Source of the DNA: Candidatus Peribacteraceae bacterium | GTDB lineage: Bacteria; Patescibacteriota; Gracilibacteria; Peribacterales; Peribacteraceae | DNA length: 41,616 nucleotides | Direction of reading: 5' to 3' | Assembly: GCA_041678625.1 (NCBI GenBank) | Contig: JBAYNS010000001.1 | Coordinates: 1-41,616, forward strand | Part shown: positions 28,773 to 37,909 of the stretch, in pieces | Position numbering within the stretch: the stretch's first letter is position 1 | How the letters are laid out: each line of letters begins with the position of its first letter | Position numbers and translations under genes: made by a program | The notes under the pieces: generated by a model | What the model saw: only the letters and a program-made list of their open reading frames with translations | What the model was told of the DNA's origin: nothing | Database searches by the model: none

Positions 28773-28847
28773 GGGTCAGTAGCTCAGTGGTAGAGCAGAG
28801 GCCTTTTAAGCCTTTGGCCGTGGGTTCGATCCCCACCTGACCCACCA
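28773..28847 (+). tRNA. tRNA-Lys(UUU), CCA encoded
   Basis: GGGTCAG/CTGACCC acceptor, D-arm GCTC-AGTGGTA-GAGC, anticodon loop CTTTTAA, T-arm GTGGG-TTCGATC-CCCAC. Length 75 nt. Confidence 0.92.
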
Positions 28848-28886
28848 TTCGTCGCCCCGCGTACGCGGGGCTCCTCATGGCAAGCC
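28848..28886 (+). repeat. GC-rich palindromic element (family member)
   Basis: TTCGTC-GCCCCGC-GTAC-GCGGGGC-TCCTCATGGCAAGCC, with a 7-bp stem at 28854-28871. Confidence 0.55.
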
Positions 28887-28908
28887 ATTTCTGCTACGTT
28901 CATATGCT

Positions 28909-29163
28909 ATGGCTTTTTTCACATATATTCTTGAGTTAGAAAATGGCTCCTATTATGTTGGGCACACGAGTGATCTGAAACGTCGTATCAAAGAACATCA
29001 AGAAGGTCGAGCATGTTCTCATACACGAAAATATCCCATAGTACGATTATGTTGGTATGAGAAACAACCCGATCGTTTTACTGCTGCCAAGCGAGAAAAA
29101 GAGATAAAAGGTTGGCGCAGAGAAAAGAAAGAAAAACTTTGGTTGGATGTGGGCTCGTCCTGA
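28909..29163 (+). CDS. stand-alone GIY-YIG nuclease family protein (UPF0213/YhbQ-like)
   Basis: Has FTYILELENGSYYVGHTSDLKRRIKEHQEG...AAKREKEIKGWRREKK, i.e. GIY..YVG, R and E in canonical spacing. Length 84 aa. Confidence 0.85.
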   Translation: MAFFTYILELENGSYYVGHTSDLKRRIKEHQEGRACSHTRKYPIVRLCWYEKQPDRFTAAKREKEIKGWRREKKEKLWLDVGSS

Positions 29164-29176
29164 GCATAACGAAGGA

Positions 29177-29199
29177 TTCGATCCCCACCTGACCCACCA
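29177..29199 (+). repeat. direct repeat: copy of the last 23 nt of tRNA-Lys
   Basis: Perfect 23/23 identity to 28825-28847. Confidence 0.9.
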
Positions 29200-33432: not shown

Positions 33433-33528
33433 GATTCTGTTTGTGCCCTCGTCCGCCTACGCCAAGGCTTTGGCGGACGAGTCACTCAGCTTATAATTCA
33501 TTCTCACAAGATTCGCTTCGTATTACTT

Positions 33529-33642: not shown

Positions 33643-33719
33643 ACACCTGTAGCTCAATTGGATAGAGCGTCAGCTTCCGGAGCTGAAGGTTGTGGGTTCG
33701 AGCCCCGCCAGGTGTACCA
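33643..33719 (+). tRNA. tRNA-Arg(CCG), CCA encoded
   Basis: ACACCTG/CAGGTGT acceptor, GCTC-AATTGGATA-GAGC D-arm, anticodon loop TTCCGGA, T-arm GTGGG-TTCGAGC-CCCGC. Length 77 nt. Confidence 0.88.
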
Positions 33720-33743
33720 TTCAATTGATTGGCGAAGGTGGAA

Positions 33744-33780
33744 GCTGAAGATACAGGTTCAATTCCTGTCGGGGGTACCA
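33744..33780 (+). pseudogene. tRNA 3' fragment (anticodon-stem 3' strand to CCA), Gly-like
   Basis: GCTGA-AGAT-ACAGG-TTCAATT-CCTGT-CGGGGGT-A-CCA. The T-arm is perfect, but no matching 5' anticodon-stem strand lies upstream. Confidence 0.6.
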
Positions 33781-33781
33781 T

Positions 33782-33897: not shown

Positions 33898-34629
33898 TCA
33901 CCGTATGTCCCGATATTGCCTGGTTACCGGACGACGCAGAATTACTTCTGAAACAAAGTTCACGGCATACAGAAAACTTGTACGCCAAAAGCCTTCATCC
34001 GATGTCATGCGGCGGCCCGAACTCTTGGTTATAAATTTCAGGTTAAATTGCACGCGGCCGATTTTGTGCAGGCGTCGTGCGATATTCGTATCTTCCCCGT
34101 AGAAAGAGATGGATGTATCAAAGCCGCCAATGCGGAGCAGAGCACTGCGTTTGGCGACGAAGTTCCCGCCAATGACCATGTAGCGCGTACAGCAGTACAT
34201 GGGAAAAGCAATGAACATCCAGAAGAGTTTTACGAGTATGTTTTGCCATCGTGCCAGATCAAAGCAGTAGTACGGTCCGCTCAGGCAGACAAGGTTAGAG
34301 TCTTTGGCGAAGTGTGCGTTGATCATCTCAAACCATCCTTCCGGAACGTGCGTATCCGCATCCACAAAGGCAAGCAGATCTCCTGTTGCACTCTCAAGTG
34401 CCTTCTGGCGCGCATACGTAACTCCTTTACGTGATTCATCCACCACGGTGACGCCGGGGAATTGTTCGGCGATACTGTGTGTTCGATCCGTGCTTGCATT
34501 ATTGATCACGAGCACTTCACACACATTCGGCGTCTTATACATCAGGCAGTGCTCCAAACATGCTGCGATGTAGTCTTCCTCGTTATGTGCCGGAATGGCA
34601 ACGGTAATGGTCATAACCGGGTGAGGCAT
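33898..34629 (-). CDS. glycosyltransferase family 2
   Basis: VAIPAHNEEDYI, VINNASTDRT and the FVDADT (DxD) motif, GT-A fold signatures. An alternative start lies at 34614. Confidence 0.85.
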   Translation of the reverse strand: MPHPVMTITVAIPAHNEEDYIAACLEHCLMYKTPNVCEVLVINNASTDRTHSIAEQFPGVTVVDESRKGVTYARQKALESATGDLLAFVDADTHVPEGWFEMINAHFAKDSNLVCLSGPYYCFDLARWQNILVKLFWMFIAFPMYCCTRYMVIGGNFVAKRSALLRIGGFDTSISFYGEDTNIARRLHKIGRVQFNLKFITKSSGRRMTSDEGFWRTSFLYAVNFVSEVILRRPVTRQYRDIR

Positions 34630-34683
34630 GCAAAATATTCGTGTCTAGAATAGACGCATTCGATCTGTGGCGACAGTGTTACA

Positions 34684-34719
34684 GTCAATGGAGCGGGATA
34701 GTGGAGTGTATTCGGAACT
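34684..34719. repeat. 36-nt direct repeat, copy A (contains TGGAGCGGGATA, identical to the 3' end of tRNA-Gly(CCC) on this strand)
   Basis: GTCAATGGAGCGGGATAGTGGAGTGTATTCGGAACT matches 35546-35581 at 35/36 positions. Confidence 0.85.
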
Positions 34720-34757
34720 AGTTCGAACCTATAGTTAGCAGTAATTCAATGAAATAA

Positions 34758-35513
34758 TCATGCACCAGCTTCTTTCTTGTTACCCTCTCTCAAAGTCCGA
34801 AGATCAGTCATAAATGCCTCTGGAGAATATTCGGGACTTGGCAAAGGAGAAGATATGTATGCTGTTTTATACTCTTCGTATCCTATGAGATAGTTGCCTC
34901 TTCGCAATGCTTTCCCCGTAGGGATGCCCGTTCGAATTATGCCATCTAAAGATGGACAGGGTTGCTGAAGAATCTGAGGTAAATAGAGATGATCCCGAAA
35001 TGTTCCATTTTTGTTCACAGACCAATTTCGTATTGCATTTGCCAACTCTTCGTCTCCGTTGTAATTCAAGCAAAAAGCTATAACTAGTCCTGTTCTTGTT
35101 TTGGTGGATGCAACGACATCATTAAGAGCATTCGCCGTTTCTTTCGTGTAATCTGGTAATCCACCCAATGGTTTTCCCAAATGAATCAGCCTTACATTTT
35201 TGTTCTCTGCTTTATTGATCCAATTTTCTAAGAGATTTCTGAAGAATGTATGAAAAACATCAAACAATACGCGTAAATTCATCTCTGTTCGTTGGGACAT
35301 ATTTTTGTCTGACAAACCCCAAAATGCCAAAATACCTCGCATTTCTCCAATTGCAGTATTCATCAATTGTTCGACAGAATTTGCCCCCATTGAATACCCA
35401 TCACGTAATTGATCAACAGTAAGATCTGCCTTGCTAGCAACACCATATTTTTCCTTTGCCCATGTGCGATCACCGTCGCAAATAATGCCTATGAATTCAG
35501 ATTCATCATGCAC
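34758..35513 (-). CDS. divergent cis-prenyltransferase (UppS-like isoprenyl transferase) in an AT-richer cassette
   Basis: By eye, collinear with E. coli UppS: IGIICDGDRTWAKEKYG (compare IIMDGNGRWAKK), FWGLSDKNMSQR (compare FSSENWNR), NVRLIHLG, LNYNGDEEL (compare NYGGRWDI) and IIRTG...LRRGNYLIGYEE (compare [21 protein letters not shown]). GTG start. A hand count of 34801-34860 gives 24/60 G+C. Confidence 0.65.
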   Translation of the reverse strand: MHDESEFIGIICDGDRTWAKEKYGVASKADLTVDQLRDGYSMGANSVEQLMNTAIGEMRGILAFWGLSDKNMSQRTEMNLRVLFDVFHTFFRNLLENWINKAENKNVRLIHLGKPLGGLPDYTKETANALNDVVASTKTRTGLVIAFCLNYNGDEELANAIRNWSVNKNGTFRDHLYLPQILQQPCPSLDGIIRTGIPTGKALRRGNYLIGYEEYKTAYISSPLPSPEYSPEAFMTDLRTLREGNKKEAGA

Positions 35514-35545
35514 AGTAAATAAATATGATATTCATATGGATTTCT

Positions 35546-35581
35546 GTCAATAGAGCGGGATAGTGGAGTGTATTCGGAACT
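35546..35581. repeat. 36-nt direct repeat, copy B
   Basis: GTCAATAGAGCGGGATAGTGGAGTGTATTCGGAACT, with 1 mismatch to copy A. Confidence 0.85.
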
Positions 35582-35593
35582 GAGATGGAGTAT

Positions 35594-35837
35594 TACTGCG
35601 GAGCAATATGACGAAAACGAATGGAAGTCCCCGACCCGGACTTCAAGTACTTCTCAAATTGATTGCCTTCGTTTTATTGCGGAATCCACAAAACCATTCT
35701 ATATCCCATGGACGAAGATTCTTGGTCGCAATCACTGATCCTTCGTTATGCTCTTTGAGCCGCACGGATATATCAGAAGCATGGCCAACATATTGTTTAC
35801 CTTTCTGGTTGCGTAAGATGTATACGTAATGCCACAT
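35594..35837 (-). pseudogene. stand-alone GIY-YIG nuclease gene, apparently frameshifted near the C-terminus
   Basis: The ORF at 35643..35837 reads MWHYVYILRNQKGKQYVGHASDISVRLKEHNEG...RPW...KAINLRST*. Shifting frame at the AATTT run (about 35655) gives ...FEKYLKSGSGTSIRFRHIAPQ*, which matches the usual C-terminal (E/R)KYLKSGSG motif of this family. The corrected stop is at 35594-35596. Confidence 0.6.
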
Positions 35838-35956: not shown

Positions 35957-36030
35957 TGGAGCGGGATACGAGAATCGAACTCGCGTCTTAAGCTTGGGAA
36001 GCTTACATACTACCACTGTACTAATCCCGC
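35957..36030 (-). tRNA. tRNA-Gly(CCC), CCA encoded
   Basis: GCGGGAT/ATCCCGC acceptor, anticodon stem TAAGC/GCTTA, loop TTCCCAA, T-arm GCGAG-TTCGATT-CTCGT. Length 74 nt. Confidence 0.9.
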
Positions 36031-36136: not shown

Positions 36137-36213
36137 TGGAGCGGATGACGAGATTCGAACTCGCGACCTTCTCCATGGCAAGGAGACGCTCTAGCCAACT
36201 GAGCTACATCCGC
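36137..36213 (-). tRNA. tRNA-Gly(GCC), CCA encoded
   Basis: GCGGATG/CATCCGC acceptor, GCTC-AGTTGGCTA-GAGC D-arm, anticodon loop TTGCCAT, T-arm GCGAG-TTCGAAT-CTCGT. Length 77 nt. Confidence 0.9.
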
Positions 36214-36330: not shown

Positions 36331-36549
36331 ATAATGAGAAAATGGACAATAGTGCACTCCTGTGTTCAAAAGGAGTATCCAGCCTGCTGTTTCCAGCATA
36401 GTAGGCTACATGCCATCTTCAATGACGTTAAAGAGCGCGTGAATGCTACGGAGAATCTGTGCCGGATGCAAGAATCTCAGCCCTCTTCCAGGGAGGAAAA
36501 TGGCTATTTTGGGCTCGAAATACACCCGATTTTGCAGTATAATAATGTG

Positions 36550-36981
36550 ATGGCTGTACAAAGATTCCTTGCGGCATTCATTCTGGCACTCCTAGTAGGA
36601 GTGGCAGTTCATATGCCTGTTCATGCAGCAGACGACCAAAATGCAGCTAGCAACAAACATGTTGTTCAGCAGGTTGTGAAAACTATCCCGCTCATTCAAC
36701 CTCTTAATGACACTACAACGCAGTTGCCGGTTGGAACGTCTCCGGCAGGAACCTTTATTGCGTATTTTAACATGGGATCTTCGTGGCTCATTAGTGTCGC
36801 CGTGGGTATTGCTACTCTCTGGGTTCTTGTCTGCGGGGGCGCCATTGTGGTGGTGGGGCATAACGACGGCCAGCGCAGTGAATGGATGGGCAATATGAAG
36901 CGGGCGATCGGAGGACTCATTGCTCTGGTTTTCGCCGGGTCCATTCTGCGGTTCCTCAATTCCGCATTCTTCACTTCATGA
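36550..36981 (+). CDS. T4SS pilin-like (TrbC/VirB2-like) protein 1
   Basis: ATG at 36550 and a signal peptide (AAFILALLVGVAVHMPVHAA). Two C-terminal TM helices flank GHNDGQRSEWMGNMKRAI. Confidence 0.55.
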   Translation: MAVQRFLAAFILALLVGVAVHMPVHAADDQNAASNKHVVQQVVKTIPLIQPLNDTTTQLPVGTSPAGTFIAYFNMGSSWLISVAVGIATLWVLVCGGAIVVVGHNDGQRSEWMGNMKRAIGGLIALVFAGSILRFLNSAFFTS

Positions 36982-37574
36982 TGCGCCGTATCATTACTAC
37001 TCTCACGGCTTTCTCTGCCTCCGTACTTTCTGTGCCTGCGGCTCTGGCGGCTAGGCCACAGGTGGATCCCTGTGCGTACATCGGAGGGTGCACCTACGAT
37101 GCTAACTGGGTCAGCCCGCTTATCGGCAAGCTTGCTGGTTTGGGTATGACTATTGCCGCAGGTACGGCTGTACTCTTTGTGGTTGTTGGCGGTGCGCAGA
37201 TGGTTATCAGCATGGGGGAGGAAGGCACAATCACCAAAGGAAAAATGTCCATGGTCTATGCGCTTATCGGTTTGGGGTTGGCGATGCTGTCTCAGACTAT
37301 TGTGGCATACGTCGCCACAGAATTTTCCGGTCTCTTTATGAGTACTGATCCCATTTTCACCTTCATACGATCCGCAATTACGGTGATTGTTGGTCTCTTC
37401 AATGTCGTCTTTGCGCTGATGGTCGTCTATGCGGGATATCGCATGACCTATGCGCGGGGAGAAGCGGAGAACTTCAATAAGGCAAAGAGTATCCTGATTT
37501 GGTCTGTTGTCGGTGCGATCGGTGTTAATGTTGCTGCTGCTCTGACCAAAGCTGTTATTAATCTGCCTCTATGA
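36978..37574 (+). CDS. T4SS pilin-like protein 2 (apparently duplicated pilin module)
   Basis: The ATG overlaps the previous stop (ATGA). There is a signal peptide (...SVPAALAA) and four TM helices with two loop motifs, ISMGEEGTITKGKMSM and YARGEAENFNKAKSIL. Confidence 0.55.
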   Translation: MMRRIITTLTAFSASVLSVPAALAARPQVDPCAYIGGCTYDANWVSPLIGKLAGLGMTIAAGTAVLFVVVGGAQMVISMGEEGTITKGKMSMVYALIGLGLAMLSQTIVAYVATEFSGLFMSTDPIFTFIRSAITVIVGLFNVVFALMVVYAGYRMTYARGEAENFNKAKSILIWSVVGAIGVNVAAALTKAVINLPL

Positions 37575-37909
37575 TACATACTCTTTTTGTCATCATCGGT
37601 TTGGGAGCGGACAGTGCGTATGCAGGAGCTTTCGATGAATACTGTTCCATTTTGCACAGTGGTTGCGGGAGTGGCAGCAGCTTTTTAGAAGAACTCTTCA
37701 GCCGGTTGGGGAACTTCTTTGCCCCTCTTGTTGCCGGTGCAGCGGTGGCCGTCATCATCTACGGTGCAATCAGACTTATTACATCTGCGGGGAACGATCA
37801 GGGCAAAGAGGAGGCAAAGAAGATTATTACCACGGCGCTTACAGGGCTTATTCTTGCTCTTGCTGCGGAAGCAATCATTATCTATATCAACAATTTCATT
37901 TGGAGTTAA
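37571..37909 (+). CDS. T4SS pilin-like protein 3
   Basis: ATGA overlap with the previous gene, a signal peptide (...ADSAYA), and two TM helices flanking ITSAGNDQGKEEAKKII. Confidence 0.6.
   Translation: MIHTLFVIIGLGADSAYAGAFDEYCSILHSGCGSGSSFLEELFSRLGNFFAPLVAGAAVAVIIYGAIRLITSAGNDQGKEEAKKIITTALTGLILALAAEAIIIYINNFIWS

Follow-up and report, generated by a model that had tools for sequence, protein, structure and literature searches.

The locus in the window

The window, a 41,616-nt stretch from the genome of a Candidatus Peribacteraceae bacterium (assembly GCA_041678625.1, contig JBAYNS010000001.1), contains a short unit in which a single open reading frame (ORF) coding for a divergent cis-prenyltransferase, here called P0001, is enclosed by two direct repeats (DR1 and DR2). 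The unit lies behind a tRNA-Gly(CCC) gene, from which it is separated by a small GIY-YIG nuclease gene. The genome (G000) consisted of 129 contigs (1.13 Mb, 88% complete), and the relatives with which it was compared belong to other genera, since none of its own genus was present in the collections. The features of the locus were as follows.

33643-33719, plus strand: tRNA-Arg(CCG), far border of the variable interval (by synteny with the relative G210)
33898-34629, minus strand: family 2 glycosyltransferase (GT2) gene, 243 aa, normal G+C, outside the repeat-bounded unit
34679-34738, minus strand: site copy 1, consisting of DR1 (34679-34719) and 19 further conserved unit-end bases
34758-35513, minus strand: divergent cis-prenyltransferase P0001, 251 aa, GTG start, sole gene of the cassette
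35522-35550, minus strand: promoter-like TTGACA-17-CATATT, ending 9 nt before the GTG (consensus match only)
35541-35581, minus strand: site copy 2 (DR2), right end of the GIY-YIG unit, then left end of the cis-prenyltransferase cassette
35624-35644, minus strand: terminator-like hairpin with T-run, after the GIY-YIG ORF
35643-35837, minus strand: GIY-YIG nuclease gene, 64 aa, tRNA-proximal unit (homolog in G210)
35957-36030, minus strand: tRNA-Gly(CCC), proposed docking gene
36137-36213, minus strand: tRNA-Gly(GCC), conserved neighbour of the docking tRNA in relatives

Direct repeats with a tRNA-Gly tail bound the unit

An earlier note on this DNA had described direct repeats of 36 bp, and pairwise comparison within the window indeed gave 35/36 identity between 34684-34719 and 35546-35581. 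The similarity in fact extends to 41 nt (34679-34719 versus 35541-35581, 38/41 identical), with an exact core of 29 nt and all 3 mismatches clustered at one end. Exactly 2 copies of the core were present in the 1.13-Mb genome (0 for the reversed-pattern control), a profile built from the repeat and its relatives recovered the same 2 copies only, and the core had no match in the metagenome_contigs collection. Between the repeats, the 862-bp unit holds a single ORF, the GTG-started frame at 34758-35513 that had been reported before; it is encoded on the minus strand, which had not been stated.

Read on the minus strand, that is, in the sense of the tRNA, the repeat consists of AGTTCCGAATACACTCCAC, then TATCCCGCTC(C/T)A, then TTGAC(T/A)G(T/A)AA. 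Its middle 12 nt equal the acceptor 3' strand, discriminator and CCA of the tRNA-Gly(CCC) gene, which lies 375 nt from the nearer repeat copy, and these last 12 nt of the tRNA with CCA recur in both site copies. The 12-nt tail and its TTGA flank are also similar to tRNA-Gly(UCC) genes. Site copy 1 reads GGTTCGAACTAGTTCCGAATACACTCCACTATCCCGCTCCA followed by TTGACTGTAA, contains the 12-nt tail TATCCCGCTCCA, and forms the right end of the cis-prenyltransferase cassette. At site copy 2, the junction reads ..CCCGCTCTA followed by TTGACAGAAA, and the -35 hexamer of the promoter-like match falls within this copy, at the left end of the cassette. The likeness of the repeats to a tRNA goes no further than the 12-nt acceptor/CCA tail and some loose similarity to a T-loop; a tRNA pseudogene was rejected, as Rfam and ARAGORN detected no tRNA-like fold in the repeats. 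No hairpin was found in the site either, the 41-nt site and its 101-nt contexts folding no better than shuffled sequences (z 0.3-1.6).

Seen from the tRNA, the order of the locus is tRNA-Gly(CCC), GIY-YIG, site, cis-prenyltransferase, site, in agreement with the earlier proposal that the unit is stacked behind a GIY-YIG cassette at the same tRNA. The GIY-YIG ORF, with 64 aa versus 81 aa for its homolog at the same place in G210 (L116:4051-4296), is seemingly shortened at the C terminus. On the far side, the GT2 gene has the same direction as the cis-prenyltransferase ORF and starts 128 nt downstream of it; G210 carries other genes at this position.

The same site ends other units in relatives

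A shared site of ~32 nt, AGTTCC(G/T)NATA(A/C)(G/A)CTCCANTATCCCGCTCCA, was detected in 12 of 200 family genomes and 10 of 84 genera (0 for the reversed pattern), where it bounds other cargo. In G210, G022, G076, G188 and G220, a distance of 0.4-1.1 kb separates the site from tRNA-Gly(CCC) upstream of it. In G210, G022, G188 and G220, tRNA-Gly(GCC) stands beside this tRNA, an arrangement also seen in the window; the G076 contig begins just upstream of tRNA-Gly(CCC). Tandem pairs of sites were found in G076 (465 nt apart) and G220 (380 nt) as well as in the window (862 nt). The stretches from tRNA to site or from site to site contain small unrelated ORFs and have a G+C content below that of the locus, most of them with one main ORF. 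The G210 unit combines a GIY-YIG gene with a coiled-coil ORF, one short G220 unit is without a clear ORF, and the cargo elsewhere includes a Nudix-box protein as well as several proteins for which no match was found.

When the site copies were aligned, the identity extended as far as CCA, immediately after which all of them diverged. The following unit begins with TTGACAGAAAT in the window, TTGACAGAGAT in G220 and TTGACAATTAT in G076, the latter two also starting with TTGACA. On the DR1 side, the window matches the end of the G210 unit over 51 nt (88%), beyond the repeat itself. The window is syntenic with G210 in the order TatD, tRNA-Arg(CCG), variable part, tRNA-Gly(CCC), tRNA-Gly(GCC) and pilin-like genes, and within the variable part the two are wholly different except for the GIY-YIG gene. 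These comparisons support the view that the repeats mark the ends of units and are not a generic intergenic repeat. The interpretation of the repeats as cassette boundaries in the earlier note was thus upheld: the same sequence ends tRNA-Gly(CCC) units in other genera and, in addition, an element with a serine recombinase.

This element is a 6,039-bp segment that is 99.97% identical between two genomes of different genera, G178 (L115:6884-12922) and G004 (L114:6702-12740), an identity that would reflect either very recent transfer or cross-binning. The end of the segment coincides exactly with the site. In G178 its start falls within the final six bases of tRNA-Gly(UCC); no tRNA is present at the left junction in G004. 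The first gene on the tRNA side (L115:6878-8443 in G178) is the only recombination gene of the element, and its product is a large serine recombinase of 521 aa in which Resolvase, Recombinase and Zn_ribbon_recom domains were identified. The remainder is cargo (flavodoxin, DsbB, nitroreductase). A homolog of this recombinase follows directly after the second site in G076. Site and recombinase thus co-occur.

Tail copies at other tRNA genes

An exact copy of the gene's own 3' tail (at least 12 nt) was found within 3 kb downstream of 12 of the 40 tRNAs of the window genome and upstream of none (0/40), with 7 matches among 1,560 pairings in a tail cross-pairing control. Examples are C69:3808-3884, C26:8995-9071, C12:15818-15892, C115:1793-1869 and positions 28773-29199 of the window. 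The larger tail-bounded units have a low G+C content and carry cargo: GIY-YIG and a GNAT-like 169-aa ORF at tRNA-Met (1.49 kb, 42%), a 432-aa ORF at tRNA-His (1.62 kb, 39%), and two ORFs at tRNA-Gln (1.87 kb). GIY-YIG genes occur in units at tRNA-Lys, tRNA-Met, tRNA-Ile and tRNA-Gly. The sequence preceding the other tail copies is of a CGAAG type, and the site described above is specific to tRNA-Gly units. Given the GIY-YIG units and this difference in pre-tail sequence, more than one insertion mechanism may act at tRNA tails.

P0001 has a cis-prenyltransferase fold and lies outside the UppS equivalog

In the earlier note, the ORF had been aligned by eye along its full length with undecaprenyl-diphosphate synthase (UPPS), and this likeness was confirmed by both profile and structure prediction. 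P0001 matched the Pfam family Prenyltransf (PF01255) with 65.9 bits (cut-off 27) over profile positions 1-211 of 219. An AlphaFold2 model based on a 19-sequence alignment reached a pLDDT of 93.5 and a pTM of 0.91, and Foldseek aligned it with lavandulyl-diphosphate synthase and many UPPS structures at template modeling (TM) scores of 0.72-0.84, lavandulyl diphosphate synthase being the best match. We are confident that the predicted cis-prenyltransferase fold is not in doubt. Against the uppS equivalog TIGR00055, P0001 scored 43.5 bits, below the cut-off of 109.55, and all PRK equivalogs also failed; it belongs to the cis-prenyltransferase superfamily and lies outside the UppS equivalog.

The genome contains two PF01255 genes, that of P0001 and a canonical uppS at G000:C51:4313-4948, which scored 237 bits on Pfam and 217 bits on TIGR00055 and adjoins a GHMP-kinase gene. 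The two proteins share 22% identity. The suspicion that the ORF in the window is not the housekeeping uppS was therefore correct. As for the remark that uppS normally sits beside frr/cdsA, P0001 is not found there, and neither is the canonical copy on C51.

All three motif changes noticed before, DGDRTW, GY and RTGIPTGKALRRGNY, are present in P0001. Tyr at the position of His43 is the norm of the subfamily to which P0001 belongs, and the canonical GGExRxSNF stretch is replaced in this subfamily by a loop that is 3-5 residues longer and still ends in R-x-[GAT]-N-[YF]-L. DGDRTW is common to P0001 and its nearest homolog P0003 only, most other members having DGNRRW. With the exception of DGDRTW, the altered conserved residues thus mostly characterise a rare subfamily as a whole and do not indicate damage or decay of the P0001 copy. 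Within the subfamily alignment, G14, R16, S68, N71, R75 and R194 are invariant, the C-terminal RxG is retained in most members, and D13, the first Asp of the DG motif and P-loop Asp, is found in 17 of 19 rows (Asn in P0004 and P0005). D13, S68, N71, R75, R194 and R204 of P0001 align with catalytic residues of solved UPPS structures, which we take to correspond to D26, S71, N74, R77, R194 and R200 of Escherichia coli UPPS. Relative to the E. coli enzyme, P0001 has Gly at S202, Tyr at H43, Asp at N28 and Thr at R30. At the position of Ala69 it has Gly, which is not bulky, and in the alignment its helix after R75 exceeds that of E. coli UPPS in length. A bulky residue at the Ala69 position or a shorter helix marks short-chain enzymes.

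The protein belongs to a rare subfamily

Among 5.8 billion clustered proteins, P0001 had three relatives, at 58%, 35% and 32% identity. In a set of 1.84 billion, 17 representatives were found at E<=1e-10, with canonical UppS proteins next at ~60 bits or less, and scanning of genome_contigs with the subfamily alignment returned canonical UppS only, at no more than 30% identity. In a maximum-likelihood tree, the subfamily has a long stem with 98% support. P0001 groups with P0003 and P0006 (59% and 49% identical to P0001) at 100% support on a long branch of their own (0.92), apart from P0010 and from the copy of the family relative G001.

Seven more distant members (P0004, P0005, P0007-P0010 and the G001 copy) share a conserved neighbourhood on their contigs. 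Its order is thioredoxin/DsbA, a WecG-type glycosyltransferase, a 112-aa protein, phosphoglycerate mutase, the prenyltransferase, sometimes gmk, UDP-GlcNAc 2-epimerase and a Wzy_C-like membrane protein. The WecG encoded on the P0010 contig is 59% identical to that of the window genome. The genes of P0001, P0003 and P0006 all lie outside this WecG/phosphoglycerate mutase/Wzy-like block.

Of 60 relatives, G001 alone had a subfamily member. This genome (98% complete, same family) carries the gene (L018:5780-6556) inside the WecG/iPGM/Wzy-like block as its sole PF01255 gene and has no canonical UppS; one full-length canonical UppS was present in 33 of 41 family genomes sampled. In G001, an essential enzyme would have been replaced by a protein that looks non-orthologous. 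That G001 has only the subfamily gene indicates that the subfamily can serve as the sole cis-prenyltransferase of a cell, which argues for a polyprenyl diphosphate carrier as its product.

A His_Phos_1 protein encoded next to five subfamily members was considered as a prenyl-diphosphate phosphatase partner and rejected, because it is textbook gpmA. In G001 and the window genome iPGM takes the place of gpmA, so the arrangement represents housekeeping synteny without a functional link. At the same locus of relatives, gpmA (His_Phos_1) occurs in L107-L110, L007 and L008 versus iPGM in G000:C36 and L018. In the window genome the block is interrupted by contig ends: contig C36 (G000:C36:9188-9418) stops inside the N terminus of gpmI, right after WecG and a small gene, and contig C113 (G000:C113:1-1188) begins inside the Wzy_C-like gene. 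The rest of iPGM (iPGM_N domain) and the UDP-GlcNAc 2-epimerase are not in the assembly.

The P0006 gene is located on a 2-kb metagenome contig, as the first of two genes at L105:182-1901; after a gap of 17 nt comes a gene for a 313-aa protein (L105:960-1901). This neighbour is a stand-alone class II terpene cyclase domain, with matches to the corresponding domain of AstC and of the drimenol synthase of bacteria (9mhs, 9m7d; E 1e-45). A precomputed AstC-like_C match was not reproduced by a Pfam search; a PDB sequence search does show it. The two genes form a possible cis-prenyltransferase/cyclase operon. The P0003 gene follows a TrmB regulator and is near two tRNA genes. On its contig (L005:1939-2877), tRNA-Gly(UCC) is followed by an SDR-like 261-aa ORF and then by a 21-nt tail copy (86%), which aligns with the window repeat at 25 of 30 positions.

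Composition and origin

The unit has a G+C content of 38.7% and its ORF 40.1%, compared to 49.3% for the genome, which bears out the earlier description of an AT-richer unit (~40% versus ~50% G+C). Among 800-bp windows of the genome, 2.1% are at or below 39% G+C. At third codon positions (GC3), the P0001 ORF has 32.5% G+C, which places it at the 1.6th percentile of genome ORFs with 200 aa or more; the value for the GT2 gene next to it is 56%. The genes of P0001, P0003 and P0006 all show 37-40% G+C, each below the rest of its own contig, and together with the composition data this is the pattern of a horizontally moving gene. The extreme G+C and GC3 values and the grouping with P0003 and P0006 in the tree also agree with the horizontal acquisition that had been suspected, and they support the view that the P0001 gene is foreign and not vertically inherited.

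A phage source of the cassette was rejected: viral_contigs held no relative, and phage records gave only weak matches to canonical UppS. For the flanking GT2 gene, the best homologs are at most 59% identical, and the GT2 loci of family members showed no synteny within 1.5 kb.

A probable cassette inserted behind tRNA-Gly(CCC)

In our view, the unit of 862 bp was probably acquired horizontally, as a cassette of one gene that inserted in a site-specific manner behind tRNA-Gly(CCC) and carries a likely active accessory enzyme as cargo. The cassette would have inserted at a tRNA-Gly(CCC) hot spot, directly behind an earlier or later GIY-YIG unit. The 41-nt repeats would represent copies of one attachment-type junction with three parts, namely, a conserved unit end (..AGTTCCGAATAcaCTCCAc), the tRNA-Gly acceptor/CCA tail (TATCCCGCTCCA) and the first bases of the unit that follows (TTGAC...). 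Small units with a conserved right end may integrate at the tRNA-Gly tail by means of a large serine recombinase, each new arrival displacing older units outward. Because partners of the site in relatives, either full-size or neighbouring, encode a large serine recombinase, the likeliest mover of the cassette would be such an enzyme acting in trans. The stack of GIY-YIG unit and prenyltransferase cassette would now be stranded without its enzyme, and the cassette is probably immobile today, given that no such recombinase was found in the 88%-complete assembly.

P0001 is most likely an active enzyme that condenses isopentenyl diphosphate (IPP), judging from the retained catalytic set, the intact frame, the conservation among three clade members (48-59% identity) and the case of G001. 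With an allylic diphosphate as the primer for IPP condensation, it would form a cis-polyprenyl diphosphate, and a polyprenyl diphosphate is probably its product. Gly at the Ala69 position and the longer helix after R75 mildly favour a medium- or long-chain product. The enzyme would have an accessory role next to the housekeeping UppS and might, together with the adjacent GT2, supply the synthesis of envelope glycans; the co-directional GT2 gene suggests a role in glycan assembly on a lipid carrier.

Several observations weigh against this interpretation. In the 88%-complete window genome, neither a PF00239 match nor a tblastn match to a serine recombinase was found, and the recombinases present are two Xer-like tyrosine recombinases on other contigs. 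Serine recombinases normally do not create long identical direct repeats; because such repeats are unusual for them, the proposed insertion needs units that share conserved ends, a feature deduced from just 12 genomes. Tail copies also lie behind 11 other tRNAs of differing identity, often with GIY-YIG and without the site. As for the enzyme, P0001 and P0003 have Asp and Thr in place of Asn28 and Arg30, which in E. coli UPPS hold the allylic diphosphate, and Tyr for His43. Among homologs whose neighbours are informative, P0006 is the nearest, and its gene is coupled to that of a class II terpene cyclase and not to envelope genes. Finally, the gap between C36 and C113, where relatives keep the subfamily gene, could hide a resident copy.

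Other explanations of the locus

With the same cassette, the clade of P0001, P0003 and P0006 might make a short or unusual prenyl diphosphate for specialised terpenoids and not a lipid carrier. This would fit the class II cyclase encoded 17 nt after the P0006 gene (E 1e-45), lavandulyl diphosphate synthase as the best Foldseek match, the long branch of the clade (0.92) apart from the conserved-block copies, and the change of the diphosphate-binding loop to DGDRTW. However, the cyclase link was seen on one contig only, and no cyclase homolog was found in the window genome. P0001 moreover retains S68, R75, R194 and N71, the last of which is the Asn that removes the IPP proton, and the Gly at the Ala69 position and longer helix after R75 run counter to the chain-length rules for short products; on balance, a terpenoid role appears unlikely. 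A noncatalytic function, as in partner proteins of the NgBR/Nus1 type, or decay of the gene could be read from the failure of all equivalog models and from changes of the type N28D, R30T, H43Y and S202G. We regard this as highly improbable, as the frame is intact, the fold prediction confident and D13 present in P0001, and as R16, S68, N71, R75 and R194 are invariant in a subfamily that provides the sole cis-prenyltransferase of G001 and are kept in three clade members at 48-59% identity.

Regarding the insertion itself, the tRNA-tail units could have been placed by GIY-YIG (Ssn-like) nucleases or by repair after their cuts, with the prenyltransferase as cargo and the link to a serine recombinase coincidental. 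The bias of own-tail copies toward the downstream side (12/40 versus 0/40 tRNAs) and the presence of a GIY-YIG gene in several tail-bounded units, including the tRNA-Gly(CCC) unit of G210, speak for such an origin, as does the insertion-sequence-like architecture of ssnA loci (PMC11893778). Yet the cis-prenyltransferase cassette has no nuclease of its own, site-bearing cassettes in G076, G022 and G188 lack a GIY-YIG gene, the pre-tail sequence of the site is specific to tRNA-Gly units and unlike the CGAAG type, and the 6-kb element that ends at the site has a large serine recombinase as its sole recombination gene, which makes insertion by nucleases distinctly unlikely. An exact core of 29 nt, with all 3 mismatches confined to one end, would also fit a single crossover in short homology, i.e., Campbell-type homologous integration of a fragment sharing ~40 nt, or a local duplication, in line with the lack of a recombinase in the assembly. 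Such events leave unexplained why the same site surrounds unrelated units behind the same tRNA in 10 genera and why identity stops exactly at CCA, and the DR1 side matches the G210 unit end over 51 nt, past the repeat; we judge them very unlikely to account for the repeats. An assembly or binning artefact, in which a foreign fragment was joined at a shared short repeat, is brought to mind by the fragmented assembly (129 contigs, 88% complete), the alien composition and the occurrence of the protein on the window contig only. It is extremely improbable: a chimera would require the same 29-41 nt at both ends of the foreign fragment, the flanks are syntenic with G210, and the architecture of tRNA-Gly(CCC), unit, site, unit and site recurs in independent genomes.

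Comparison with known systems

P0001 resembles the UPPS of E. coli, Staphylococcus aureus and Micrococcus luteus in fold (TM 0.72-0.82) and length and has the P-loop Asp, the Ser/Asn/Arg of the IPP/allylic site, the RTG motif and an RxG-like C-terminal end in common with them. It differs from them in sequence (~22-27% identity), in DGDRTW for DGNGRW, Tyr for His43 and Gly for Ser202, and in an insert of 3-5 residues between the RTG and R..N motifs; moreover, UppS is encoded by a housekeeping gene, whereas P0001 is a second copy on a putative mobile cassette. The best structural matches were lavandulyl diphosphate synthase (5hc6), Z,Z-farnesyl and neryl diphosphate synthases and Rv1086. These noncanonical enzymes of the same fold provide a precedent for short or irregular products, and one close homolog of P0001 is coupled to a terpene cyclase; at 19-23% identity, however, they are no closer to P0001 than UPPS is, and P0001 is without a chain-length-limiting bulky residue at the Ala69 position. 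The Asn that acts as general base is kept in P0001 but is not known from the lavandulyl enzyme.

The stack resembles islands of the staphylococcal cassette chromosome type (SCC/SCCmec; rlmH, CcrAB/CcrC) and tandem accretion of cis-mobilizable elements (CIME), and integrons only superficially. As in SCC and CIME arrays, units lacking a recombinase stand head to tail at one site, attachment-type sites are repeated between them, and recombinase-bearing relatives use the same site. Unlike in these systems, docking apparently takes place at the 3' end of a tRNA-Gly gene, the units are 0.4-1.1 kb in size and mostly single genes, and the host is a Peribacteria-type bacterium with a tiny genome in which no serine recombinase was found. 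With integron cassettes, the units share single, mostly promoter-proximal, unrelated genes in one orientation, each ended by a conserved recombination site. An integron attC identity was nevertheless rejected, because the site is without a hairpin; it has no attC symmetry and derives from a tRNA tail, no IntI-type integrase is nearby, and the cassette appears to carry its own -35 box. The similarity to Ssn GIY-YIG nucleases, whose loci have hairpin repeats on their flanks (PMC11893778), concerns the neighbouring unit, in which a small GIY-YIG protein occurs together with hairpins, as it does in the tRNA-Lys cassette of the window; the cis-prenyltransferase cassette has neither nuclease nor hairpins. 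In the papers searched, we found no description of serine-recombinase cassette stacks at tRNA genes of candidate-phyla bacteria, and none of this prenyltransferase branch, of a cis-prenyltransferase in candidate phyla radiation genomes or of one coupled to a drimenol synthase.

The P0001 subfamily represents a rare, uncharacterised branch of cis-prenyltransferases. One of its sub-branches seemingly replaces UppS in G001, and the other appears to travel on mobile cassettes, once in an apparent operon with a drimenyl-type terpene cyclase. Through its repeats, the locus is linked to a group of small cassettes that lack a recombinase and sit behind tRNA genes in ultra-small bacteria. The two-cassette example, with its conserved ends and its recombinase-bearing relatives, offers defined recombination substrates, i.e., the joined site and the tRNA-Gly tail. 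It is conceivable, though we would stop short of calling it probable, that the family runs an integron-like gene-capture platform at tRNA-Gly(CCC) that is driven by a large serine recombinase. Promoter-bearing, mostly single-gene cassettes with tRNA-Gly-tail sites of ~32-40 nt would be stacked there and swapped between genera, one of them spreading a rare cis-prenyltransferase able to replace UppS or feed a terpene cyclase. If true, such a platform would alter lipid-carrier or terpenoid chemistry through a single insertion.

Further observations around the locus

The tRNA-Gly pair is flanked in the window by tandem type IV secretion system (T4SS) pilin-like genes (PF18895) at 36334-37909. The pair of G210 is also adjoined by a membrane protein. 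At the other border of the variable interval, directly after tRNA-Arg(CCG), positions 33720-33781 contain what appears to be a displaced and diverged tRNA 3' half, with a T-arm (ACAGG-TTCAATT-CCTGT) and the end CGGGGGT-A-CCA. Past this tRNA half, copies of a GC-rich hairpin repeat were noted at 33453, 33551, 33782, 36049 and 36276.

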